Positions 8,596 to 44,260 of a stretch of DNA of 64,000 bases are shown here, one piece after another. Every line of letters begins with the position of its first letter. The stretch's first letter is position 1. The translations under genes and the position numbers were made by a program. The notes under the pieces are model-generated. The model saw only the letters and a program-made list of their open reading frames with translations. It searched no databases and had not been told where the DNA came from. This DNA is from Patescibacteria group bacterium (lineage in GTDB: Bacteria > Patescibacteriota > JABMPQ01 > JAHIRA01), in contig JAHISJ010000024.1 of assembly GCA_018818205.1 (NCBI GenBank), positions 17,093 through 81,092 of the forward strand, read 5' to 3'.

Positions 8596-11292
8596 CTACG
8601 CCTCCTTTTTTTGTATCTTTCGTATTCGTGCAATAAATATCCATTTGACGACTTCAATAACAACAATAACAACGATACTGCCAATAAGCACAACCATCCA
8701 GTCGTAAAAACTCAGTGGAACCGTTTTAAAAAGTCTTTGAAGCGGTCCAAAGTACACCGCAAGAATCTGCAAAGCGAATCCACCAAACACCGCAACTAAA
8801 AGCCATTTATTTGAAAAGAACTTCTCATGAAACAAGGTGTGCCTGAGGCTCCTCACACTAAACACATAGAGAAGGGAATCAAACGCCAAAAAGGAGAAAC
8901 AGATCGTCCGTACCTCAGCAAGGTCCATACCCATAATTGTATAGAGCACATAAAAAAGCGCTAACGTGCCCAGGCCGGTCACCGCACCGATAATGCCAAT
9001 AAGCACTTTCATCTCCCGGTTAATCACCGGTTCATTTTTTGCTCGTGGCGGCTCCTTCATTGCTTCTTTGTCAACCGGGTCAAATGCTAAGGCCATGCCA
9101 GGGAATCCATCATCAACTAAATTAATCCAAAGAATTTGCGTAGGAAGTAAGGGGACTGGCAGACCTAAAACAAGAGCTCCAAAGATAAGTATGAGCTCAG
9201 AAAAAGAATCGGAGAGAAGATATAAAACGACCTTTCTAATATTGTCAAAAATACGTCTCCCTTCTTCAACAGCGGCAACAATCGTTTTAAAATTGTCATT
9301 AATTAAGATCATATTAGATGTTTGCTGCGCGACTTCTGTTCCAGACCCCATAGCAACACCAATATCCGCCCTTTTAAGCGCCGGACCATCATTTACTCCA
9401 TCACCCGTCATGGCTACCACTTGATTGTCTTTTTGAAGTACCTCGACAATCTTGAGCTTGTGAACCGGTGCAACACGTGCAAACACTTTTGCCTTCTCTA
9501 CACGCTCTCTTAGCTTCTCCTCATCATCTTGAATCGATTCAAACTCAGCGCCATCAATGACTTCGTCGTCACTTTGGACAGTTAGACCCACTTCATTTGC
9601 GATGTTTCTTGCCGTCATTTTATGATCACCCGTAATCATTTTTACACCCACGCCTGCAGCATATGTTGCTTCAATAGCTTCCTTGATGTTTTTCCTAATA
9701 GGATCTCGTATAGCAATGAGTGATAAAAAGGTAAGGTTTTGTCCTTTGTCTTTGGAAAGATCAAACTCCTCCTCATCATCATCCACATCAACTTCCTTAT
9801 ACCCAAGCGCAATAACTCTAAACCCCTTGGTACTCAGTTCCTTGTTTTTCTCACCAATTATACTCCTGTCTTCTTCAGAGATGGAGACACGCTCACCACC
9901 TTTATAAATATGCGTTGAATACGTCAGTACCCGCTCAGCCGTTCCCTTCTCTAGAACCAAAACTCGATCATCGTCCTCTTTGTCCTTATGCGCAGTCACC
10001 ATATATTTGATGTACGAGTCAAACGGAATCTCGTCAATAAGTTCAAACTGCTTCTCGAGCACACACTTGCTCAAATCGTATTTACCCGCAAGATCAAAGA
10101 GCGCTTTTTCTGTAGTATCACCTAGTGCCTTTTCGCACGCACCATCAGCATCCTCGACAATTAAATCATTACACAAAGCTGATACTAAGAAGGAGTAATA
10201 AAATACCTTGTCCGACTCAATCTGGTCTTTAGGAATATCTGAAACGGGGTACTCTCCGTCAACGGTCACGAGCTTTTCTGCCTCCATCTCACCAGTAGTA
10301 ATGGTTCCTGTTTTGTCAGTACAAATAACGGTCGTACTTCCAAGAGTCTCAGCCGCAACAAGCTCACGGACAATTGCCTTTTTCTTTAAAATCTGTCGCA
10401 TGCCAACCGCAAGAATAATAGTAACCGAGATAACCATGCCCTCCGGAATGGAGCTTACCGCAAGTACCACCGCAAAATCAAACATCTCGTGAATATCACG
10501 TTTTAAAAGAATGCCGGTTACAAATACGATTATACAACAGATAATCACCACAATGGAAATCCAAATACTGAGCTCAGCCATACGTTTTTGAAGTGGTGTT
10601 GATTCCTCCTTGGTTTCTTCAACCAGCTCAGCAATCTGACCCACCTCAGTGTGAGCTCCAGTTGTTGTGACCACCGCCAAAGCTTTTCCGTTCGTAACCA
10701 CTGTACTTTGATATACCATGTTTTTTCTATCGCCAAGTGGCGTATCCTCATCTAACACCGCATCAAACTCTTTGTTTTCCGACCGGGATTCACCGGTAAG
10801 CACCGTCTCTTTGGTCTCAAAACGATTGCCGTCTAAAATCCTAGCATCAGCAGGAATCCGATCTCCCGCGTCGAGGTAAATAATGTCGCCGGGTACCAAG
10901 TCCTTTGCGTCAATTTCTTTGACCGCACCGTCTCTCAGCACCTTTGCCTTAAACACAACCACCTCTTTAAGCTCAGATATGGTCTTAACGGCTTTCATCT
11001 CCTGAATCACCGAGATAATGATATTGATAACAAGTGCCGCAAGAATGACAATAGCATCCGTTTTTTCACCAAAGAAAAAGGAAATGAACGCAGCAATAAA
11101 CAAGATAATAGTAAAAAGATCTTTAAACTGTCTGAAAAAGACCTTAAAAATCGACGGCGGTTTTTTCTCTTCAAGTTTATTTGGTCCGTACTTTTCTTGG
11201 CGTTTTGCTACATCACTCAAAGAAAGACCCGATTTTTTGTTTGATGAAAGCTCCTTAAGCGCCTCATCTGCTGTTTTTGTATAATATTTCAT
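8596..11292 (-). CDS. P-type cation-transporting ATPase (P2/Ca2+-ATPase-like)
   Basis: DKTGTIT phosphorylation motif, TGDGVNDGPALKRADIGVAMG hinge motif, about 10 TM segments, 898 aa. Confidence 0.9.
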   Translation of the reverse strand: MKYYTKTADEALKELSSNKKSGLSLSDVAKRQEKYGPNKLEEKKPPSIFKVFFRQFKDLFTIILFIAAFISFFFGEKTDAIVILAALVINIIISVIQEMKAVKTISELKEVVVFKAKVLRDGAVKEIDAKDLVPGDIIYLDAGDRIPADARILDGNRFETKETVLTGESRSENKEFDAVLDEDTPLGDRKNMVYQSTVVTNGKALAVVTTTGAHTEVGQIAELVEETKEESTPLQKRMAELSIWISIVVIICCIIVFVTGILLKRDIHEMFDFAVVLAVSSIPEGMVISVTIILAVGMRQILKKKAIVRELVAAETLGSTTVICTDKTGTITTGEMEAEKLVTVDGEYPVSDIPKDQIESDKVFYYSFLVSALCNDLIVEDADGACEKALGDTTEKALFDLAGKYDLSKCVLEKQFELIDEIPFDSYIKYMVTAHKDKEDDDRVLVLEKGTAERVLTYSTHIYKGGERVSISEEDRSIIGEKNKELSTKGFRVIALGYKEVDVDDDEEEFDLSKDKGQNLTFLSLIAIRDPIRKNIKEAIEATYAAGVGVKMITGDHKMTARNIANEVGLTVQSDDEVIDGAEFESIQDDEEKLRERVEKAKVFARVAPVHKLKIVEVLQKDNQVVAMTGDGVNDGPALKRADIGVAMGSGTEVAQQTSNMILINDNFKTIVAAVEEGRRIFDNIRKVVLYLLSDSFSELILIFGALVLGLPVPLLPTQILWINLVDDGFPGMALAFDPVDKEAMKEPPRAKNEPVINREMKVLIGIIGAVTGLGTLALFYVLYTIMGMDLAEVRTICFSFLAFDSLLYVFSVRSLRHTLFHEKFFSNKWLLVAVFGGFALQILAVYFGPLQRLFKTVPLSFYDWMVVLIGSIVVIVVIEVVKWIFIARIRKIQKKEA

Positions 11293-22968: not shown

Positions 22969-25437
22969 ATGGACAAACGCTACGACTTCAAAAAATTCGA
23001 AGACGAAATCTATGCGCAGTGGGAAGAATCGGGTTATTTTAATCCCGACAATCTCCCAGATGCCAAAGAGCCATTCTCGATTTCCATGCCACCGCCAAAC
23101 GCAACTGGCATGCTCCATATTGGTCATGCGCTCTTTTTAACGCTGCAAGATATTATGGTTCGTCATGCCAGAATGACCGGCAAAAAAGCACTCTGGCTGC
23201 CTGGTACAGACCATGCTGCTATCGCAACAAACGCTAAAGTGGAAAAAATACTCAAAGAGGAAGGAAAAACCAAGTACGACCTTGGCCAAGAGAAATTTAT
23301 TGAACGCGTAGATGAATACGTTTCCACCTCTCAAGACACCATCAGAAATCAAATTAGAAAAATGGGGTCAAGTTGTGACTGGTCACGCGAGCGCTACACT
23401 ATGGATGAAGGCCTCACCAAAGCAGTGCAAACAGCATTTATAGACATGTACAATGATGGCCTTATTTACCAAGGCAACAGAATCGTCAATTGGTGTCCCC
23501 ATTGCGAATCAACCCTCGCCGATGATGAAGTTGAGCACAAAGACCACAATGCACAGCTCTACTATATCAAATACGGCCCTTTTATTATCGCAACGTCCAG
23601 ACCAGAGACAAAACTAGGCGACACTGGTGTTGCCGTTCACCCAGATGATGCCCGGTACCAAGAATACGTTGGAAAAACAATCGATGTTGATCTTGCAGGC
23701 CACACAATAACCGTAAAAGTATTTGCCGACCCGGAAGTAGACCAAGAGTTTGGCTCGGGCGTTATTGGTGTAACACCGGCCCATTCTGTAGTCGACTTTG
23801 ACTTTGCGGAAAAACATGGGCTCGAGACAATCCAAGTGATTGATGAAAAGGGAATAATGACTGATAAAGCAGGAAAATATGCGAGCCTGGAAGCACCTGA
23901 TGCACGCAAGCAGTTTGTTAACGACTTAGAAACCGCAGGACTGATAGAAAAAATTGAAGACTATGTACAGGCAACAAGTCTGTGCTATAGATGCGGATCC
24001 GTTATTGAACCGCTCATCTCAAAACAATGGTTTATTGCGGTTAATAAGCCAGCAGACAGGTTAAACGGAAAATCACTCAAACAAGTCTCAATCGAGGTGG
24101 TCAAAAATGATGAGATACACTTTGTACCGTCGCGCTTTGAGAAGATCTATTTCCACTGGATGGAGAATTTGCGCGACTGGTGCATCTCAAGACAAATTTG
24201 GTTTGGACATCGTATGCCTGTTTGGTATGCAAAAAATGATACCAAAAAAGAAAAGCCTATTGTCTCTAAAGAAAAGCCAGAAGGTGATTTTGTACAAGAA
24301 TCTGATACGCTCGATACATGGTTTTCAGCCGGACTTTGGACGTTTTCTACACTTGGGTGGCCAGAAATCACCAATGATTTAAAAACATATTACCCAACAT
24401 CTGTTATGGAAACAGGGTATGATATCATCTTTTTCTGGGTAGCTCGTATGATAATTATGGGTACATACCATATGGAAAAGGAAAACATAAGAGATGTTGT
24501 TAAAGAAAGTGTGCCGTTTAAAACCGTGTACTTACATGGACTCGTTAGGGACAGACTCGGAAGAAAAATGTCCAAGTCTCTTGGAAACGGCATTGATCCG
24601 CTTGAAATGATAGAAAAATACGGCGCTGATGCCGTGAGGCTCTCTCTTGTTATTGGTATTACACCCGGAAACGACTTGAGGATGTTTGAGGATAAAATTA
24701 AGGGCTACAGGAACTTCGCCACAAAGCTCTGGAATATTGCACGGTTTGCTAAGGAAAGAGGGGTAAAACTAACTTCAGAAATACCAACGCTTGAAAAAGC
24801 TCCTGACAAAACAGACAACCCCGACAACTTTGGACCATGGATACTCTCTGAACTTTCCGGTCTGTATAGTAATTATGAAAACTCGCTCAAAGAATACAAT
24901 TTTGGACAAGCAGGTGAAACACTATATACCTTTACTTGGCATTCTCTTGCTGACTGGTACATTGAAATGTGTAAAAAATCAGAAAACGTCGACTACCACA
25001 ATCACGTGCTTGGATACGTTTTATATTGGCTTTTGAAGCTCTTACACCCTTATACACCTTTTGTCACAGAAAAAATCTGGAACGAGTTTGATCAAAAAAA
25101 TCCGCTCATGGTAGAGCAACTTTCAGATAAACACTTTAAATCTCTGGAAGACAAAATGGATAGCGAGAATAAAGAAATGAAAGTATTGATTAAACGAGCA
25201 AGCAGCGTAAAACAAGAAATTGAAAAAAAACGCAAACAAGCCGATATAGACGAGAATAAAGAAAAATATACAAAAGAACTTGAAAGCATAGCTGCCTACA
25301 TAAAAAGTCTCGAAAAAAAACTCGCAAACAAGCAATTCGTAAAAAACGCCCCGAAAGAAGTAGTAGAACGTGAGCAACAAAAACTTGAGGATTTTAAACA
25401 AAAAAAAGAAGAGCTGGAAAAGCTCCTCGGGGAATAA
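22969..25437 (+). CDS. valS: Valine--tRNA ligase
   Basis: HIGH motif PPPNATGMLHIGHA, KMSKS motif KMSKSLGN, C-terminal coiled coil. 822 aa. Confidence 0.95.
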   Translation: MDKRYDFKKFEDEIYAQWEESGYFNPDNLPDAKEPFSISMPPPNATGMLHIGHALFLTLQDIMVRHARMTGKKALWLPGTDHAAIATNAKVEKILKEEGKTKYDLGQEKFIERVDEYVSTSQDTIRNQIRKMGSSCDWSRERYTMDEGLTKAVQTAFIDMYNDGLIYQGNRIVNWCPHCESTLADDEVEHKDHNAQLYYIKYGPFIIATSRPETKLGDTGVAVHPDDARYQEYVGKTIDVDLAGHTITVKVFADPEVDQEFGSGVIGVTPAHSVVDFDFAEKHGLETIQVIDEKGIMTDKAGKYASLEAPDARKQFVNDLETAGLIEKIEDYVQATSLCYRCGSVIEPLISKQWFIAVNKPADRLNGKSLKQVSIEVVKNDEIHFVPSRFEKIYFHWMENLRDWCISRQIWFGHRMPVWYAKNDTKKEKPIVSKEKPEGDFVQESDTLDTWFSAGLWTFSTLGWPEITNDLKTYYPTSVMETGYDIIFFWVARMIIMGTYHMEKENIRDVVKESVPFKTVYLHGLVRDRLGRKMSKSLGNGIDPLEMIEKYGADAVRLSLVIGITPGNDLRMFEDKIKGYRNFATKLWNIARFAKERGVKLTSEIPTLEKAPDKTDNPDNFGPWILSELSGLYSNYENSLKEYNFGQAGETLYTFTWHSLADWYIEMCKKSENVDYHNHVLGYVLYWLLKLLHPYTPFVTEKIWNEFDQKNPLMVEQLSDKHFKSLEDKMDSENKEMKVLIKRASSVKQEIEKKRKQADIDENKEKYTKELESIAAYIKSLEKKLANKQFVKNAPKEVVEREQQKLEDFKQKKEELEKLLGE

Positions 25438-30557: not shown

Positions 30558-33233
30558 ATGGCTCTTCTATGCAACGCGTGTAATTCACGCCCAGCGACCC
30601 TTAAATTCAGACAAACAAAAAATGGACGTGTGCATACTTACAACCTCTGTCATGCCTGTGCTGAGGAAAGAAACCTCATGCAATCATCTCCATTTGGCTC
30701 CACGTTTTTTGATGATTTCTTTTCCGGCACTCCTTTTGCGAGAAGCCAAACACCCATGCACAAACGTGAACCTGATCGCGTAAACATCATTGACTACTTT
30801 TCTGAACGAGCAAAAAAGGTTCTTGAAGAAGCAGCCGCGTTTGCGCAAAGCGTTAACTCGTCAAGCATAGACACAGAACATTTGCTGGTAGGGCTTTGTG
30901 AAGAAGAAGAGATGGGTGTTAAGATTCTTGAAAAAATTGGCATAAACGCCGATGATCTTAAAAAATACATCGAAGAAAACACGGTAGAGGGAACAGAACA
31001 AAAACAGCAACTAGATCTCTCTCCGCGAGCAAAAAAGGCACTGGAGCTTTCGTTTTATATTGCTCGTGAAATGGGACTAAATTATGTAGGGTCAGAGCAC
31101 CTCCTTCTTGGCCTCCTTAAGGAAGGTGAAGGCATGGCGTATCAAACGCTAAAGAAGTACAACGTGGATTACGACAAAGCACTCCAAGCTATTACCAAGT
31201 CAATTGGAACTAAAAAAGACGCCTCTGAAAAAAAGGTTCAGTCAAAAACGCCCACCTTGGACTCATACTCTCTTGATCTCTCCAAGCAAGCTGCAGAAGG
31301 CAAGCTCGACCCCGTTATTGGAAGAAGCGACGAGATAACCCGCGTCATTCATGTCCTCTCAAGACGCACAAAAAATAACCCGGTACTTATTGGTGAGCCA
31401 GGTGTTGGCAAAACAGCCATTGCCGAGGGGCTTGCTCAAAAAATAGAGTCAGGGAATAGTCCAGAAAACCTCAAAGGAAAACGCGTGGCTTCCCTTGATC
31501 TTGCCAGTATGCTCGCCGGTACAAAGTTTAGAGGTGAGTTTGAAAAACGCCTCAAGAAAGTCGTTAAAGAAATTAAAGATAATAATAAAGAAATAATTCT
31601 CTTTATTGATGAGCTCCATACTATTGTCGGTGCGGGTGCATCAGAAGGCTCCATAGATGCATCAAATATTTTAAAACCTGCTCTCGCCCGAGGCGATTTA
31701 CAAACGGTTGGCGCCACAACGCTAAACGAGTATAAAAAGCATATTGAGAAAGATGCAGCACTTGAGAGACGATTTCAACCAATCCTTGTCGGTGAGCCAA
31801 ATGTTGATGTTACGATAGAAATTCTAAAAGGCTTACGAGACAAATACGAGGCACACCACAAAGTCAAAATTACGACAGAAGCAATTATGGCAGCAACCCA
31901 TCTTTCTGATAGATATATTCAAGATCGATTTCTTCCTGACAAAGCCATTGATTTAATTGATGAAGCAGCGGCAAAAGTGCGCCTTCAATCCATTACCACG
32001 CCCGATAAACTCAAAGAGCTACAAAAAGAAATCACGCGTATAAAAAAAGAGATTGAAGCGGCAGACAAGGCAAAAAATAAGCGCAAAGTACTGCTTCTTA
32101 AAAAAGACCAAAAGACAGCCACCGAAGAAAAAAAGAAGCTTGAGGAAACCTGGCAAAAAGAAAAAGGAACAAAGAAATCATCGGTATCAGCTTTAGATAT
32201 AGAGGAAGTGCTTTCAAAATGGACAGGTATCCCCGTTAAAGATCTCTCTGAAGAGGAAACAAAGAAGCTACTTGCTCTTGAAAAGCAGCTGCAAGAAAAA
32301 GTGATTGGGCAAGAGGATGCTATTTCCGCAATTAGTGAAGCGATTCGTCGGGGAAGAGCTGGCCTTAAAGATCCAAAACGTCCCATTGGCTCGTTTATTT
32401 TTCTTGGTCCAACTGGCGTTGGCAAAACGGAGCTTACCAAAGCGCTTGCATATCTCCTGTTTGGTGACGAGGAAGCAATGGTCCGCATAGACATGTCAGA
32501 ATACATGGAACGACATGCCGTTTCCCGTTTGGTTGGCTCTCCTCCGGGATACGTGGGGCATGAAGAAGGTGGTCAGCTCACAGAAAAGGTACGAAGAAAA
32601 CCGTACAGTGTCATCTTGCTCGATGAAATTGAAAAAGCGCACCCTGATGTCTTTAACATTCTTTTACAAATTTTAGAAGATGGGAGACTCACTGACGCAA
32701 AAGGGAGAACCGTCGATTTCAAAAACACCGTTATTATTGCCACATCAAACCTTGGCTCAAGCCTTATCACTCAAGCGACTGAGGGCAAGCTTGGGTTTGA
32801 GGATTTAAAAAAGGACCACCAGAAGAAAAGCGGCAAAGAAGCTATTGAGAGCCTCAAAGAAGATCTTATGAATGAGCTCAAAAAAACGTTCAGACCCGAA
32901 TTTATCAATCGAATCGACGAGATAATTTTCTTCCATGCGCTTGATGAAAAACAGGTAAGAAAAATTGTCGACTTAATGCTTGAGCGGTTAAACGAGCTCC
33001 TTGCGGGACAAAATATCGAACTCGATGTTACCTTAAAGGCCAAAGATGCCCTTGCTCATGAAGGATACGATCCTACATACGGCGCACGTCCACTGCGAAG
33101 AGTGATTCAAAAAAGAATTGAAAACCCTCTTTCAACAAGCATTCTTGAGGGGACATTTATGGAACAAGACACCATCACTGTTGATGTTGACAGTAAAGGA
33201 GCATTTACATTCAAAAAGAATAAGAAAAAGTAG
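30558..33233 (+). CDS. clpC: Clp/Hsp100 AAA+ chaperone (ClpC/ClpE-type) with N-terminal CxxC zinc finger
   Basis: N-terminal CNACN...CHAC finger, two Clp_N repeats, AAA1 GEPGVGKTAIAEGLAQ, short M-domain, AAA2 FLGPTGVGKTELTKALA. Choice between ClpC and ClpE is ambiguous. Confidence 0.85.
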   Translation: MALLCNACNSRPATLKFRQTKNGRVHTYNLCHACAEERNLMQSSPFGSTFFDDFFSGTPFARSQTPMHKREPDRVNIIDYFSERAKKVLEEAAAFAQSVNSSSIDTEHLLVGLCEEEEMGVKILEKIGINADDLKKYIEENTVEGTEQKQQLDLSPRAKKALELSFYIAREMGLNYVGSEHLLLGLLKEGEGMAYQTLKKYNVDYDKALQAITKSIGTKKDASEKKVQSKTPTLDSYSLDLSKQAAEGKLDPVIGRSDEITRVIHVLSRRTKNNPVLIGEPGVGKTAIAEGLAQKIESGNSPENLKGKRVASLDLASMLAGTKFRGEFEKRLKKVVKEIKDNNKEIILFIDELHTIVGAGASEGSIDASNILKPALARGDLQTVGATTLNEYKKHIEKDAALERRFQPILVGEPNVDVTIEILKGLRDKYEAHHKVKITTEAIMAATHLSDRYIQDRFLPDKAIDLIDEAAAKVRLQSITTPDKLKELQKEITRIKKEIEAADKAKNKRKVLLLKKDQKTATEEKKKLEETWQKEKGTKKSSVSALDIEEVLSKWTGIPVKDLSEEETKKLLALEKQLQEKVIGQEDAISAISEAIRRGRAGLKDPKRPIGSFIFLGPTGVGKTELTKALAYLLFGDEEAMVRIDMSEYMERHAVSRLVGSPPGYVGHEEGGQLTEKVRRKPYSVILLDEIEKAHPDVFNILLQILEDGRLTDAKGRTVDFKNTVIIATSNLGSSLITQATEGKLGFEDLKKDHQKKSGKEAIESLKEDLMNELKKTFRPEFINRIDEIIFFHALDEKQVRKIVDLMLERLNELLAGQNIELDVTLKAKDALAHEGYDPTYGARPLRRVIQKRIENPLSTSILEGTFMEQDTITVDVDSKGAFTFKKNKKK

Positions 33234-33255
33234 TAACAAAACTAATAGAAAAACA

Positions 33256-34998
33256 ATGAAGAAATTGCTCATTTCTGTGTTTATCTTAATCGTATCAATC
33301 TGGTGCTTTGAGCCATGCGTTTCATATGCCAAAGAAACAAAAACTATTTTGACGCTCGGAGATAGTATTACGTATGGATACCCCTACGGGGAAACTGCTT
33401 ATACATACCCAGCACAACTCTCTGGTATGCTTGCGACGACATCAGAGTACTACACTTATGTCATGTCTAACCATGGTGTAAACGGGTATCGTGCTGATCA
33501 AGTTCTTACCGATTTAATTGATAATAACCGCCTTGAAGAAAATCCAAACTATGTATTACTTATGGTTGGCGGAAATGATCTTGCTCAAGAAATAAATCCG
33601 GACTTGTCAAATATTGACGAGGTGTTGACTCAAACGGTCAATGAAGTTCAGGCGACAATAGACTATATAAAGCTGCATCAAAATCCCGATGGATCTTCCC
33701 CACAAATTATTCTGTCCGCGTTCCCTCCAAATAACCTCTTTGGAACCGGCGGTTCTTTAGTTATTCAAGAATACAACAGTCGCTTGGCCGCAAATTGTGT
33801 TCATTATGATCGATATTTCACTTCGAATTGGGATGATTTTTACGATACACACACGGGGCAAGCAAAGACTACTCTTATGACCGATGATGGAGTACATCCC
33901 AACACAGAAGGATACGCCGTGATTGCTGAAAATTGGTATGAGGCATTGTATCCATTGCTCCCAAACGACCCAAACGATCCAACCCCTAAAAATCCCGACG
34001 ACCCTGTTGTCCCGGTTACTCCCCCCACACCTCCTATACCCCTCACTAAAAACCCAAGAATACTAACTACGTCAGGGCCAGGTGAACGCTCAAAGCTCCA
34101 AGCATACTCACGCCATGGAGAAGCCGAAGGGGAAGAACTAGGTAATCTCTTTCCCGATGCATATCTTGGTGGTACAGGCGTAGTCGCAATTGATGCCAAT
34201 AATAATCATATTAAAGACCAGTTTCTCGTCTTTGCACAAAAAAATGGAGGCCCTCAAGCGAGAATCTTTGGGCTTCGAGAAAATGGTGAAATGATTTTCT
34301 TTGGACAGATGTTTGTTTTTGACTCATCTATTAGAGATGGCCTTAGTATGACTGTCGGTGATTTTGACCAAGATGGCTTTGAAGATGATGTAGCAACCTG
34401 CCTGACCGGCAACAAAAAACCAACTGTTCGTATCTATACCAATGCTCGCAATGTTGATACCTGGAATCTTTTTTCAGAATTCACCGCAGATTTTGGCACC
34501 GTGGGGTGTTCTGTTGGAACCTATCGTTACGGTGATCAATCGCCAAGGCTGCTTATCACACCACACCACGGACCATCAGAACCCACTGTGTTTATTTACA
34601 CTGTAGATGGCACTCTCGAAAATTCTTTTGCTGCATATGGACCAGGCGTTACCAATGGTTTGTCTGCTACTGGAATTCAAGACAGAATTTATACTACACC
34701 CAATAATGGCACTTCGCATGTTAGAGTATTTGATGTGCTTGGTATCGCTAAGAATTCCTGGTGGGCATATTCTAATAAAAATGTAAAAGGCGACTTTAAA
34801 AATACTGTCGGAGATATAGATCTTGATGGAAAAGATGAAATTCTTATCTCTCCAATCGGTGCAAACGGTCCACAGATCTTAGCTTTTGAGCCTTCTGGAA
34901 AATGGAGAACATGGCCTAACTTTTTCGCTTTTAATAACCCTACGCTTCGAAACGGCGTCAGTGTTGCTGTTATCGAAAACTATTACGGCAACAACTAA
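33256..34998 (+). CDS. Secreted SGNH/GDSL hydrolase fused to C-terminal FG-GAP-like repeats
   Basis: Signal peptide MKKLLISVFILIVSIWCFEPCVSYA. SGNH blocks GDSITYG, MVGGNDL, DGVHPN. Repeats GDFDQDGFEDDVATC and GDIDLDGKDEILISPIGANGPQILAFE. Start placed at the internal ATG 33256. Confidence 0.75.
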   Translation: MKKLLISVFILIVSIWCFEPCVSYAKETKTILTLGDSITYGYPYGETAYTYPAQLSGMLATTSEYYTYVMSNHGVNGYRADQVLTDLIDNNRLEENPNYVLLMVGGNDLAQEINPDLSNIDEVLTQTVNEVQATIDYIKLHQNPDGSSPQIILSAFPPNNLFGTGGSLVIQEYNSRLAANCVHYDRYFTSNWDDFYDTHTGQAKTTLMTDDGVHPNTEGYAVIAENWYEALYPLLPNDPNDPTPKNPDDPVVPVTPPTPPIPLTKNPRILTTSGPGERSKLQAYSRHGEAEGEELGNLFPDAYLGGTGVVAIDANNNHIKDQFLVFAQKNGGPQARIFGLRENGEMIFFGQMFVFDSSIRDGLSMTVGDFDQDGFEDDVATCLTGNKKPTVRIYTNARNVDTWNLFSEFTADFGTVGCSVGTYRYGDQSPRLLITPHHGPSEPTVFIYTVDGTLENSFAAYGPGVTNGLSATGIQDRIYTTPNNGTSHVRVFDVLGIAKNSWWAYSNKNVKGDFKNTVGDIDLDGKDEILISPIGANGPQILAFEPSGKWRTWPNFFAFNNPTLRNGVSVAVIENYYGNN

Positions 34999-38537: not shown

Positions 38538-39563
38538 ATGATTGAAAGCAGTAAAGACAAATTAGAGAAAACTGAAAGTATTGTAAGAGATACTCAAAAA
38601 GAGGACACGGCCGAACAAAGCTTACGTCCAAAGACCTTTGATGATTTTATTGGACAAAAAAAAGTAAAAGAAAACCTCTCTATCTGTCTCGAAGCTGCAA
38701 GCAAAAGAGATGACTCGCTTGAGCATGTTCTTTTGTATGGATCACCGGGAATCGGGAAAACGAGTCTCGCCAATATCATCGCTCGCAAACAAAGTGCAAC
38801 CATTAAAACAACCGCGGGGCCTGCTATTAGCCGAGCGGGGGATTTGGCTGCTCTGCTTACCAATCTAAATGACAAGGATGTCTTATTTATTGATGAAATC
38901 CATCGATTGAACACAACGATTGAAGAAACCTTGTACGCAGCCATGGAGGATTATAAGCTCGATATTATTTTAGGCAAAGGCCCTTCGGCAAACTCCATGC
39001 GCCTTGATCTTCCAAAATTTACCCTCATTGGTGCAACAACCAGGGCCGGCCTCATTTCTGCCCCCTTAAGAACACGCTTTGGCCATGTGTACCGTTTGGA
39101 TTTTTATACCAATGAAGATATTACAAAGATTATTACCCGTTCATGTACATTACTCGACATTCCTATTAAAGAGAGTGCCGCAAAAAAGATTGCCGAGCGG
39201 TCAAGAAAAACCCCACGTATTGCGAACAGGCTCGTAAAACGTGTACGAGATTACGCTGAAGTTCATGGCGAAGGCATCATTACTAACGACATTGCTAATA
39301 AGGCACTTGGTCTCCTCGAAATAGATACTCTTGGGCTTGATGAAACCGACAGACGGCTCCTAAAGACGCTCATAGAGAAATTCTCCGGAGGCCCCGTAGG
39401 TCTTTCCACACTCGCCCATGCAACTTCAGAAGAAGAGGAAACCATCGCCGATGTCTACGAGCCCTATTTGCTGCAACTTGGCTTTTTAGAGCGGACGACA
39501 AAGGGGAGAATGGCAACGCCACGAGCGTATGAACATCTTAAACTTCCTTTCTTAGAAAAGTAA
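38538..39563 (+). CDS. ruvB: Holliday junction branch migration helicase RuvB
   Basis: Walker [16 protein letters not shown], Walker B FIDEIHRL, sensor residues. 341 aa. Confidence 0.95.
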
Positions 39564-39575
39564 TTTAATCTGGCA

Positions 39576-40223
39576 ATGCACAGCCCAGAAACCAGCTTTA
39601 ATCCTAATAAGGAAGCACGACAATCCACGTTTGAGAAACAGCCTTCGCTGGAATCCAGTATTACAAAGGAATATGCGGCCTTAGATTTTGAGATCCAACA
39701 ATTAGCTACCACTTTTGAACAACCTTTAATTTTAGAGGAAAATATTGAGGGCCTAGTTCAGCTAAAACAAAAAATAATCGAGGATACAGATCGCTCACGA
39801 ACCCAAGAAAGCACGAGCTCCGACACAGATACTAGTAATTCTTTAAAACTAAATCAGCTTAAAAAAGAATACTCCGAAGCACTGCTTTACTCTACTGTGG
39901 AAAGACTGCTCGACCACGCATATGAAAGAGAGTTGCTTGACAAAGAAATGCTTGCTGAAGAATTTGAGGATTACGATCCTAAGGTAATGAGTGAAATATT
40001 TAGTGAGCTTCCTAAAGAGCAAACTGAACAGCTAGTCCAGTCCTGGAAAGAAAAAGCTAGAAAAAAAACATCCTTCTTTGACTACTATGATGAGTTAGAA
40101 ATTGACCTTTTTAAAGAACACCTTGAAAACCAAGAAGGCCATCCAAACGTTACCATAAAGTTTGATACAAAGGGGCTCAGCCCTGACGTCGCTGGGACTT
40201 ACTCAAAAAAAATAGAACTGTAA
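39576..40223 (+). CDS. Acidic hypothetical protein (probable N-terminal part of a frameshifted gene)
   Basis: 215-aa ORF ending in an A8 run. The downstream frame is open and coding-like (see 39576..40891). Confidence 0.45.
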   Translation: MHSPETSFNPNKEARQSTFEKQPSLESSITKEYAALDFEIQQLATTFEQPLILEENIEGLVQLKQKIIEDTDRSRTQESTSSDTDTSNSLKLNQLKKEYSEALLYSTVERLLDHAYERELLDKEMLAEEFEDYDPKVMSEIFSELPKEQTEQLVQSWKEKARKKTSFFDYYDELEIDLFKEHLENQEGHPNVTIKFDTKGLSPDVAGTYSKKIEL

Positions 40224-40444
40224 AAATAGAAAGTGCTTCACCAACCTTATCTTCTCAAACTAAGCAGTTTATAAAAAATGGTAGTCTCCTTCTCTCAACG
40301 AGTACACTGGTTCATGAAATAGTACACGACATCCAGTACTACCCAGACAAAAGAAAAAAAACAGCTGACAAGATCTCTCATGTAACCGGAGAAACACTTG
40401 CTTATTTTATAGGCAACTTCTCAGGAGGAAGTGCATTTAACAGT

Positions 40445-40891
40445 TTGTCAGAAATTTTTAATTTTCTACGCTCCGAAAAATCTCCCTATAGAGTAACCAC
40501 TAAAGATCTTTCTGATTTTGTACGCTTCGTAGATCTTTTTGCTCTTGGAGTCCCTATAAAAAACATTACTACTGAATCAAAAGATAAGGATAAAATGGCT
40601 ACATTATTTTCAAAGCAAGACAATGCGTTAAAAACTGCTGCTGACACCCTTACTCAATCAAAAGACACTGCGGTTACCTCTACTCTCCATGCTACAAACC
40701 GCATGAAAAGCCGGAAAAGAACGCACAAAAAGGAAAAGGGAACAGAAACAACCTTTCCAGACGTTCTAGAACAAAGTCAATTGGAATCCTTCTTTGAAGT
40801 ATTCACGTTACGCTTAAAAAATCAAAGGAGAAAAGCACAACTCCTGCTTATGGAAGAGGTTGAGGAGTACTATAATAAGATCAGTGCATAA
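40445..40891 (+). CDS. Hypothetical protein (probable C-terminal part of a frameshifted gene)
   Basis: ORF-track TTG start. The same frame is stop-free back to 40187 without any start codon. Confidence 0.35.
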   Translation: MSEIFNFLRSEKSPYRVTTKDLSDFVRFVDLFALGVPIKNITTESKDKDKMATLFSKQDNALKTAADTLTQSKDTAVTSTLHATNRMKSRKRTHKKEKGTETTFPDVLEQSQLESFFEVFTLRLKNQRRKAQLLLMEEVEEYYNKISA

Positions 40892-41213: not shown

Positions 41214-42458
41214 ATGACAAAAAAAGAACTTGATACCGGTCGCTTTAGAGATCTTGGAATAGGGAAAAACCTTCTAACTATCCTCGAGAAAAAAGGGTTC
41301 GATATCCCCACACCAATTCAACATCAGATTATTCCCGGTGCTTTGCAGGGAAAGGACGTTGTTGGTATTGCACAAACAGGAACAGGAAAAACCCTGGCTT
41401 TTGGCATCCCCATGATTCAACGTATTGCTTTTTACAAAGGACAAGGGTTGATCGTCGTGCCCACCCGCGAACTTGCGCTTCAAGTAGACGAGGCCTTAAG
41501 AGACATCGGCACTCCGATAGGACTGCGCACCGTAGTAGTCATTGGAGGAGCTTCTCAACACAAACAATCAAGAGCTCTAAAACAAAGCCCCCATATTGTT
41601 ATTGCCACTCCAGGTCGCTTAGTTGACCTCATGAACCAAGGGGCATACACGTTAGATCAAGTAAAAAGCATTACTCTCGACGAGGCAGACCGCATGCTTG
41701 ACGTCGGTTTTTTACCGCAAATAAAAAGAATTTTGCAATCCGTGCCTAAAGACCGACAAACAATGCTCTTTTCTGCAACTATGCCGAAATCGATTTCAAC
41801 GCTTGCGAGCACATTTATGAAAATGCCGCTTAGAATAGAGATTGCTCCACAAGGAACGTCTGCTGAAAACGTTGAGCAAGAAGTGTTTGTCGTTACAAAA
41901 GATAATAAGATGCGTTTGCTCGATTCTCTACTGCAACAGTATAAAAACGACAAAATGCTCCTTTTTTCACGAACAAAATATGGGGCAAAACGTATTGCCC
42001 GCGATATTCGTGATATGGGTCATTCAGCAACAGAGATTCATTCCAACCGCTCTCAAGCACAAAGAAAAGCAGCGCTTGATGGATTTATACACGGGAAATA
42101 TCGTGTCTTGGTCGCAACAGATATTGCCGCTCGCGGCATTGACGTAAAAGACATCTCAATAGTGCTTAACTTTGACCTCCCCGATAATTCAGAGGATTAT
42201 GTTCATCGTATTGGAAGAACAGGGAGGGCAGGGCGCTCAGGGAAAGCCATTTCTTTTGTTACCTCCTCTCAAAAGCACGATGTGCAAAAGATCGAACACC
42301 TGATCAGAAAATCACTTCCAGTGCTATCCTTGCCAGAACTTCCCCCGCAAAGGAAAAGACCTCCCCAAGAACAACGTCAGGACCGGGGTAGAAACCGCGC
42401 TCCATACCGAGGTCGTTCATCTAAAGGTAACAGAGGCAGAGCATACCACCGAGGATAA
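41214..42458 (+). CDS. DEAD-box ATP-dependent RNA helicase with Arg/Gly-rich C-terminal tail
   Basis: Q-motif, AQTGTGKT, DEAD (LDEADRML), SAT, HRIGRTGRAG. C-terminal RGRNRAPYRGRSSKGNRGR. Confidence 0.9.
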   Translation: MTKKELDTGRFRDLGIGKNLLTILEKKGFDIPTPIQHQIIPGALQGKDVVGIAQTGTGKTLAFGIPMIQRIAFYKGQGLIVVPTRELALQVDEALRDIGTPIGLRTVVVIGGASQHKQSRALKQSPHIVIATPGRLVDLMNQGAYTLDQVKSITLDEADRMLDVGFLPQIKRILQSVPKDRQTMLFSATMPKSISTLASTFMKMPLRIEIAPQGTSAENVEQEVFVVTKDNKMRLLDSLLQQYKNDKMLLFSRTKYGAKRIARDIRDMGHSATEIHSNRSQAQRKAALDGFIHGKYRVLVATDIAARGIDVKDISIVLNFDLPDNSEDYVHRIGRTGRAGRSGKAISFVTSSQKHDVQKIEHLIRKSLPVLSLPELPPQRKRPPQEQRQDRGRNRAPYRGRSSKGNRGRAYHRG

Positions 42459-42502: not shown

Positions 42503-44260
42503 ATGGAAATCAGAAACATTGCTATTATTGCCCACGTTGATCACGGGAAAACAACCATTACTGACGCCCTGATGCGCCAGACAGGAGCAACAACTAATGA
42601 GTCCGTCAGCATGGACAGCAACGCGCTGGAAAAAGAGCGTGGTATTACTATTTATGCAAAAAATGCGTCCATGTTTTACAATGGTACAAAGATTAACATT
42701 GTTGACACCCCGGGGCATGTAGACTTTGGCTCAGAAGTAGAACGTGTTTTACGGTCAATCGATTCCGTACTGTTAGTAGTTGACGCGCAGGAAGGCCCCA
42801 TGCCACAGACAAAATTTGTTTTAAAAAAATCATTAGAAATTGGCCTAAATCCTCTTGTTGTTATCAATAAAATCGACAAACCTGCTGCGAGAACTAAAGA
42901 AGTCGTTGAAGAAGTGCTTGAACTGTTCATGGATCTTGGCGCAAATGACGATCAGCTAAACTTTCAAACAATGTATACCATCGGGAAAGAAGGCATCGCC
43001 AAAAAAGAATTAGATCAGGATTCAAAGGATATGGTACCCCTCCTTGATGCGATAATAGAAAATGTTGCTCCGGCACCAGCAGAAGTGGACAAGCCACTCC
43101 GCATGCAATCCTTTAATCTGGATTACGACAACTACCTTGGCCGTCTAGCAATCGCTCGAATCTATGAAGGAACAGTGAAAGAAAAAGACCGCCTTTTTAT
43201 AAAACGAGTCGATGGGACAACGCAAAAAGGAACAGTAACTGATCTCTTCACCTTTGAGGGGTTTACCAGAAAAAAAGTTGAGAGCTCTACAGCGGGCGAC
43301 ATTATCGTTGTGGCAGGATTTCCTGACGTCTGCATTGGTGATACCATGGCTACAGATGAGTCAGCCGATCTGTTACCGCACATCGCAGTCGATGAACCAA
43401 CTATTTCTTTGGGATTCATGGTAAACAATTCTCCCTTTTCTGGCCGCGAGGGAACGTTCGTAACAAATTCCCAACTTAAAGAACGTTTAGAAAAAGAATT
43501 GGAAGTAAATGTAGGGATTAAGATCGATTTTTCCCAAGCTGACCAATACACCGTTCATGGGCGTGGGGAAATGCACATTGCTATCTTGCTTGAAAACATG
43601 CGCCGCGAGGGATATGAGATACAAGTCTCTCAACCACACGTGATTTTAAAAGAAAAAGAAGGAAAAACTCTTGAGCCGTTTGAGGAGCTCATTATTGATG
43701 TACCAGAATCTCTTTCTGGCGTCGTTATCGAAAAAATTGCTAAGCGCAAAGGCACTATGATGGAAATGAAAACGCATGCTGCTGGCGCTCGGCTCGTATT
43801 TGAGATTCCAACACGAGGACTTCTTGGCCTTCGCTCAGAATTTATGACCGATACCCGAGGAGAAGGCATTATGTCTTCACGTGTTATTGGGTTTAGGCCA
43901 CATGTAGGCGACATTAAGCGCCGCGAAGTTGGTTCCATGATTTCAATGGTAAAAGGTAAAGCACTTGGCTATGCCCTATATAATTTGCAAGACCGCGGAA
44001 CTCTGTATATTGGACCAACCACGGAAGTGTATGAAGGCATGGTTATTGGAAACGTCAGTAAGGGAACAGATATGGCAGTCAATCCGACCAAAGGAAAGCA
44101 GCTCACTAATATGCGTGCATCTGGGTCAGACGATGCGTTAACTTTGACACCTCCGCTGGACCTTACACTAGAGCGCGGCTTAGAAATTATGGCTGACGAT
44201 GAGTTGCTAGAAATCACTCCTAAATCTATCAGGCTTAGAAAAAAAGTGTTGAAACAGTAG
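42503..44260 (+). CDS. typA: Translational GTPase TypA/BipA
   Basis: NIAIIAHVDHGKTT G1, DTPGHVDF G3, NKID G4. EF-G-like domains. 585 aa. Confidence 0.95.
   Translation: MEIRNIAIIAHVDHGKTTITDALMRQTGATTNESVSMDSNALEKERGITIYAKNASMFYNGTKINIVDTPGHVDFGSEVERVLRSIDSVLLVVDAQEGPMPQTKFVLKKSLEIGLNPLVVINKIDKPAARTKEVVEEVLELFMDLGANDDQLNFQTMYTIGKEGIAKKELDQDSKDMVPLLDAIIENVAPAPAEVDKPLRMQSFNLDYDNYLGRLAIARIYEGTVKEKDRLFIKRVDGTTQKGTVTDLFTFEGFTRKKVESSTAGDIIVVAGFPDVCIGDTMATDESADLLPHIAVDEPTISLGFMVNNSPFSGREGTFVTNSQLKERLEKELEVNVGIKIDFSQADQYTVHGRGEMHIAILLENMRREGYEIQVSQPHVILKEKEGKTLEPFEELIIDVPESLSGVVIEKIAKRKGTMMEMKTHAAGARLVFEIPTRGLLGLRSEFMTDTRGEGIMSSRVIGFRPHVGDIKRREVGSMISMVKGKALGYALYNLQDRGTLYIGPTTEVYEGMVIGNVSKGTDMAVNPTKGKQLTNMRASGSDDALTLTPPLDLTLERGLEIMADDELLEITPKSIRLRKKVLKQ

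Follow-up and report, generated by a model that had tools for sequence, protein, structure and literature searches.

One gene of about 438 codons at positions 39576..40891 on the + strand appears to encode a member of a zincin-like family with an HExxH...E signature, and the dominant genotype of the metagenomic population would carry a one-base frameshift in that gene, at a poly(A) hot spot. We consider it probable that this is a genuine, recent A9-to-A8 frameshift in the dominant genotype, which has left the gene as a pseudogene or in an OFF state, with leaky rescue at most. The analysis covered a 64-kb stretch of DNA (the window) from a metagenome-assembled genome of a Patescibacteria bacterium. 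The original prediction had described a gene of about 450 aa with an HExxH motif, split by a frameshift at an A8 run, and homology, structure prediction and codon usage all agree with that description. It had left three origins open, of which a genuine recent mutation is the most likely; programmed slippage is poorly supported and a sequencing error is unlikely.

The split gene and its open frames

The coordinates of the ORFs, the A8 run and the open −1 stretch that had been put forward in the original prediction all proved correct when the sequence was read again. The features of the locus, with residues numbered as in the fused protein, are the following.

39576..40223, + strand: ORF A, frame 0, 215 aa, ending in ...GTYSKKIEL; the N-terminal part of the split gene, with a coiled-coil region, the conserved W157...T165...Q186 block and beta-strands 1-2 of the predicted catalytic domain
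40061..40068, + strand: second A8 run of the split gene, in frame, encoding ARKKTS
40187..40444, + strand: start-less, stop-free segment of the −1 frame, 86 codons, with beta-strand 3, the predicted active-site helix and the Glu helix
40205..40212, + strand: A8 homopolymer, the frameshift site, inside the 37 nt over which both frames are open
40221..40223, + strand: frame-0 TAA stop of ORF A, three codons past the A8 run
40313..40327, + strand: HExxH motif, comprising H247 (40313-40315), E248 and H251 (40325-40327)
40354..40361, + strand: third A8 run of the split gene, in frame within the −1 part, encoding KRKKTA
40391..40393, + strand: E273, candidate third zinc ligand, 22 residues past H251
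40445..40891, + strand: ORF B as given by gene finders, 148 aa from a TTG

ORF A begins 12 nt past the stop of ruvB (38538-39563), and the split gene is followed by a promoter-like site and a DEAD-box helicase gene. As read from the sequence, no stop interrupts the −1 frame between 40187 and 40891, and the earliest ATG, GTG or TTG in it is the TTG at 40445, which lies 221 nt beyond the end of ORF A. The 86 start-less codons give a protein-like translation that includes STLVHEIVHDIQYY, in which the HExxH motif is found. The heptamer A_AAA_AAA at 40205-40211 is phased for a −1 shift, and the frame is also restored at the run by an additional A, whether in the DNA or in the mRNA; both routes had been proposed earlier for joining the two frames, and the phase is confirmed here. 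The fused product comprises 438 aa and reads ...GTYSKK/NRTVKIES... at the junction, where the junction peptide is ...DVAGTYSKKNR / TVKIESASPTLSSQTK.

Given the window's own triplet frequencies, a stop-free run of 86 codons has a chance probability of 1.6%, which is of the same order as the 0.5% first estimated, a slightly optimistic figure; for all 235 codons of the −1 frame to be open, the chance probability is 1.3e-5. The window has 78 ORFs of at least 100 aa, and none of the others has a start-less leader as long as these 86 codons; the second longest measures 43 codons. Nowhere else in the 64 kb do two long frames overlap at a junction without a start for the second anywhere near it. Codon usage in the start-less stretch places the −1 frame ahead of the next-best frame by 12 nats, and in the true intergenic stretch past 40891 no frame is preferred. 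Other long start-less frames (41249-41626, 10837-11244 and others) were rejected as off-frame or antisense readings of known genes, with translations that are not protein-like. The overlap of 30558..33233 with 33118..34998 was also considered as a frameshift and rejected; the gene caller starts the second gene downstream, with a 580-aa product.

Three colinear pieces of one conserved protein

An exhaustive phmmer/HMMER search with the fused protein against 1.84 billion cluster representatives returned, besides ORF A and ORF B themselves, 38 distant homologues that share 22-36% identity with the query and are mostly 520-600 aa long. With few exceptions, their best alignment stretch extends over the junction, as in P0003, the closest homologue (468 aa, from Logan SRR14610177), which aligns to query residues 89-294. 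In an alignment of 32 sequences (A1), the fused protein runs undisrupted through ...IKFDTKG..GTYSK-KNRTVKIESASPTL..., and invariant positions are found before the junction (Q186) as well as after it (H247, E248, H251, E273 and A276). The homologues are single ORFs, not pairs of separate genes.

A family hidden Markov model (HMM) was built without the query and searched with Z set to 1e6. ORF A matched positions 14-115 of this model (E 1.9e-17), the start-less segment positions 135-205 (E 1.7e-12) and ORF B positions 219-319 (E 5.6e-5), so that the three pieces match it colinearly and separately. The other two frames of the start-less stretch gave no match to the model. The intervening region thus aligns with the family in a search from which the query had been withheld, and the invariant residues of the HExxH motif are present in it.

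AlphaFold2, run with A1, gave a model of the fused protein with pLDDT 74 and pTM 0.75, in which residues 120-260 have block-mean pLDDT of 86-98, mostly above 90. One predicted beta-sheet spans the junction, with strands 193-196 and 207-210 contributed by ORF A and strand 215-218 by the −1 part. The HExxH motif is placed in a predicted helix at 240-255 and E273 in a predicted helix at 269-283. When only the domain was modelled (residues 146-336), pLDDT was 88 and the topology was unchanged. ORF B forms the C-terminal helical part of the split gene and ends in the family motif NQRRKAQLLL. ORF A, the start-less stretch and ORF B are colinear pieces of one conserved protein, and the residues of its catalytic motif are encoded after the shift.

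The annotation by gene callers corresponds to a different arrangement, in which ORF A is followed by non-coding DNA and by an independently started ORF B, from the TTG at 40445 or an ATG at 40595; a GGAGG is indeed located 16 nt upstream of the TTG. However, this GGAGG encodes a Ser-Gly-Gly segment of the protein, no + strand promoter-like site is found within the gene, and ORF B alone would be a fragment of the helical subdomain. Moreover, the supposedly intergenic stretch is the one that matches the family HMM at E 1.7e-12 and contains the invariant HExxH and Glu. The family HMM matches, the alignment and the single sheet over the junction therefore exclude two separate genes to near certainty. 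At NCBI, ORF A is the hypothetical protein KKH43_05285 (MBU1119267.1), the second part survives only as a 98-aa remnant started at an internal ATG (MBU1119268.1), and the HExxH-bearing stretch is presently annotated as intergenic. KKH43_05285 and KKH43_05290 should be merged in the annotation and flagged as one frameshifted gene.

A zincin-like family

Members of the family share a layout that begins with an N-terminal coiled coil of variable length, followed by a W..(K/R)V(R)xET...LGIxIFxDDLxxQPGFP block, three strands and the HExxH helix. It continues with a TEAQAY helix that contains an invariant Glu, a helical subdomain and an NQRxKAQLLL helix. A further C-terminal extension of ~200-250 aa with FPYDPxGxRTGIxFG is present in most members but missing in the window gene and in P0003, and the window gene has GETLAY where the family has TEAQAY. 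H247, E248 and H251 of the HExxH motif are invariant in all 32 sequences of A1. E273, on the helix that follows, would act as the third zinc ligand, 22 residues past H251. In the zincin/gluzincin superfamily, an HExxH in a helix is combined with a Glu on the following helix at ~20-30 residues, and both elements are present here as judged from the sequence and the predicted model. The protein is thus a putative, zincin-like zinc protease. The nearest known zincins and gluzincins with a small core are IrrE/PprI, CBASS-associated CapP, SprT/Spartan/WLM and the minigluzincins (projannalysin).

Searches with the fused 438-aa protein in Pfam, in PDB sequences and in a word-indexed protein search gave no match, and no entry in Pfam, NCBIfam, PADLOC or PHROGs matches the family as a whole. 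The query had no hit to the SprT-like/WLM entry (Pfam PF10263), for which only 2 of the 32 family members reach E 0.005, and profile matches in the PDB to WLM and Spartan had E 0.12-2 and covered the motif only. When the word-indexed search was run with A1, it recovered, with its word index saturated, P0032 and ORF A itself. A search of genome contigs with the fused protein for related loci found none. In metagenome contigs, A2-based patterns found nothing, and neither did a degenerate DNA pattern for HE.VHD.QYYPD, which missed even the source contig. The literature was searched for the run, assembly and locus identifiers, with nothing relevant found. The named members of the family come from Candidatus Vogelbacteria and Kuenenbacteria, both Patescibacteria. 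One sequence labelled Pseudomonadota (P0025; MFH0800114.1, 2196 aa, partial) carries the module as its C-terminal ~500 residues, from about residue 1695; it is annotated as a GNAT-family acetyltransferase and represents either a fusion architecture or a mis-binned contig.

The lesion is the same in every assembly on record

Homopolymers are the classic place for indel errors, and the A9 protein has the exact segment length of many homologues; the true sequence might accordingly be A9, and the gene intact. An identical 215-aa product is encoded by contigs at NCBI (106,773 bp), JGI/IMG (106,737 bp), ENA (ERZ27247128, k141, 106,757 bp) and Logan (SRR6514274, 25,389 bp), and the 148-aa product is recorded from JGI/IMG, ENA and Logan. 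Over the frameshift site, the DNA from both ENA and Logan matches the window exactly; elsewhere, Logan shows no difference from the window at all, and ENA only one single-nucleotide polymorphism (SNP), at a distance from the site. The lesion is therefore the same in every assembly on record, as far as consensus sequences that may all come from one library can tell.

The rest of the window offers a further comparison. Seventeen other A/T runs of 8-9 nt sit within its intact long ORFs and, with the two further runs in the split gene itself, 19 other coding A/T runs of at least 8 nt are in frame, which argues that there is no systematic homopolymer problem. No second frameshift-like junction occurs in the 64 kb. 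The k141 naming suggests short-read data, and short-read consensus errors at A8 are rare. The same split in the records of four sources, among them a k141 contig in MEGAHIT style and one from Logan, together with the intact state of the other runs, makes an error of sequencing or assembly very unlikely.

The SNP that separates the ENA k141 contig from the window and Logan over 11 kb is a T/A difference at 42833, inside typA/bipA (42503..44260), and hints at strain heterogeneity or at a different read set behind the assemblies. Among the 17 runs within intact ORFs, 15 are poly(A) rather than poly(U) in the mRNA sense. A cluster of A8 runs is also found at 25223-25230, 25313-25320 and 25400-25407, within 185 nt at the 3′ end of an 822-aa ORF (22969..25437).

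A second split member of the family

One other member is clearly split. In a 2.5-kb contig from Logan SRR22387949 (L090:379-2110), the 158-aa P0040 is followed by an overlapping ORF of 421 aa, and the two together make 579 aa, the typical size for the family. The junction reads GAAATGGTAAATGGTATATGA and contains a 7-nt tandem duplication (AAATGGT x2); with one AAATGGT copy removed, the reading becomes ...YEPLIEMVYDKPELRGQL..., which matches the family consensus. Family members thus do get disrupted, a result that is consistent with a dispensable accessory gene. The duplication also supplies the ATG of the second ORF, which overlaps the stop of the first.

This break lies ~6 residues from the frameshift position in the window, and its mechanism is unrelated. 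By a post-hoc estimate, two random breaks would fall within 8 residues of each other, out of about 500, in roughly 3% of cases, so the nearness of the two could be chance. Alternatively, the fact that both members are broken ~6 residues apart, within one loop and strand region, could mean that the protein tolerates production in two pieces or makes use of it.

Possible recoding at the A8 run

The layout of the site resembles the anatomy of frameshift sites of the IS-element type, with a phased heptamer, a 0-frame stop three codons on and no −1 start for 77 codons past the shift. The A8 run might therefore be maintained for recoding, in which case the full-length protein would be made through transcriptional slippage (+1 A) or programmed −1 frameshifting and the 215-aa fragment would be a second product. 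In one IS cluster A_AAA_AAA has been proven to be a frameshifter, though only when a stem-loop follows (PMC4066793). The part of PMC5574713 that deals with run length describes transcriptional insertions as growing exponentially with the length of an A/T run, from which some low-level A9 mRNA is to be expected even at 8 nt.

Several observations argue against such maintenance. For the 88 nt past the site the folding energy is −6.2 kcal/mol (z +0.72), a value equalled or bettered by 150 of 200 shuffled sequences; for the 181-nt context z is +1.07, and no stimulatory RNA structure is seen downstream. Nor is there an SD-like element upstream, with no GGAG or AGGA within 20 nt. The run has 8 residues, whereas efficient slippage by bacterial RNA polymerase is documented at 9 or more (PMC5009743). 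An A8 run takes the heptamer phase by chance in two of three registers. No such split is seen in 37 of the 38 homologues (the 205-aa P0037 ends near the low-coverage end of its contig), and the single clearly split homologue has a different lesion. At the equivalent site P0003, whose genomic context is unrelated to that of the window, reads CGAAAAATA. The shift site and the two-frame layout are not conserved among the homologues, none of which is closer than 32% identity.

The locus is thus like the −1 sites of IS elements and dnaX (A_AAA_AAG or A_AAA_AAA; PMC4066793) in its phased X_XXY_YYZ, its near 0-frame stop and its start-less downstream frame. It is unlike them in having neither a downstream stem-loop or pseudoknot nor an SD-like stimulator, in not being a mobile element and in not being conserved in its family. 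We regard maintained recoding as decidedly unlikely. An equally doubtful proposal is that selection keeps the A8 run as a switch or recoding site for dosing a Patescibacteria-specific zincin-like protease, with the coiled-coil fragment made by default and the full enzyme by slippage.

Possible phase variation

Alternatively, the run could be a phase-variable contingency tract that moves between A8 (OFF) and A9 (ON) by replication slippage, with the assembly having caught the OFF state. Switching by the length of coding poly(A) tracts is known in mycoplasmas. Here, the gene whose coding region contains the homopolymer is accessory and lineage-specific, and its downstream frame is fully intact. 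The split gene has three A8 runs in 1.3 kb, compared with about one A/T run of at least 8 nt per 2.4 kb across the window. By contrast, no polymorphism in tract length was seen, with all consensus assemblies encoding the same split products, and at the position in P0003 that corresponds to the run there are just five A's. As for the other two A8 runs, they do no more than encode RKKT, and P0007 likewise has VRKKT at the first of them. Phase variation, which would differ from a plain recent mutation only in being selected and reversible, possibly in a protease of host interaction, is unlikely but carries some weight.

A recent mutation as the best explanation

A genuine recent frameshift accounts best for these results. 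With A9, the distance from the conserved Gly207 to the PTL motif has exactly the length found in P0010 and many other members in A1, which makes a deletion from A9 to A8 the most parsimonious event. Decoded normally, the A8 allele would yield just the N-terminal 215 aa, without the HExxH motif, and the gene would then be either a pseudogene of very recent origin or, with a mutable tract, in its OFF state. Full-length protein would arise only by the rare insertion of an A by RNA polymerase or by a −1 ribosomal slip on A_AAA_AAA, and such rescue is expected to be low-level and unstimulated.

The 235 codons downstream of the shift carry no further lesion, and we roughly estimate the lesion to be younger than about 2% neutral divergence. 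The independent split of a second family member and the patchy distribution of a family with tandem paralogues are consistent with a dispensable, accessory gene. There is no relative closer than 32% identity with which to date the lesion or to gauge purifying selection on the part after it. The intact frame of 235 codons, the phased heptamer and the near stop also resemble a maintained recoding site. In addition, the genomes of Patescibacteria are streamlined and have few pseudogenes, which slightly lowers the prior for plain decay.

The lesion is an ordinary homopolymer frameshift, of a kind already well known. The passages of PMC8538453 and PMC4066793 that concern A/T runs of at least 8 nt describe these as hot spots of indel mutation. 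Frameshift mutations in poly-A/T with leaky rescue by transcriptional slippage have been reported for the endosymbionts Buchnera and Blochmannia and for tssM of Citrobacter rodentium (PMC5009743; PMC4256274; PMC5574713). The window gene shares with them a frameshift within coding poly(A), an AT-leaning genome, an otherwise intact gene and a frame that one additional A in the mRNA restores. It differs in that its run has 8 nt, whereas a review places efficient slippage at 9 As or Ts, and in that its lesion is not conserved in relatives.

The more useful by-product of the analysis is the family itself, comprising ~40 clusters with named members in Patescibacteria, an invariant HExxH...E and a confident predicted fold; its members sometimes occur as tandem paralogues and have been independently disrupted at least twice. 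A tract that turned out to be polymorphic, or to be recoded, would rank among the early examples of control by contingency or by recoding in ultra-small episymbiotic bacteria.

Genomic contexts of the family

A search anchored on ruvB among 185,579 GTDB species representatives gave 80 loci, from Saccharimonadia and others, in which the best RuvB identity was only about 60%. By tblastn, none of these 80 loci encodes a homologue of the split gene, so that a comparison of synteny was impossible. Judged by RuvB, the source organism has no close sequenced relative among those species representatives.

The genomic contexts of the family members are not conserved. In a genome of Candidatus Vogelbacteria (GCA_016201465.1, L088:3316-6650), two members, P0022 (561 aa) and P0007 (549 aa), abut in tandem and are 45% identical. 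In Kuenenbacteria (L086:1609-4998), a Peptidase_C25 protein and a 530-aa protein lie upstream of P0008, and neither has a counterpart in the window. The N-terminal ~138 aa of these two upstream proteins are 74% identical, and the 530-aa protein carries an HExxH-like HETTH.
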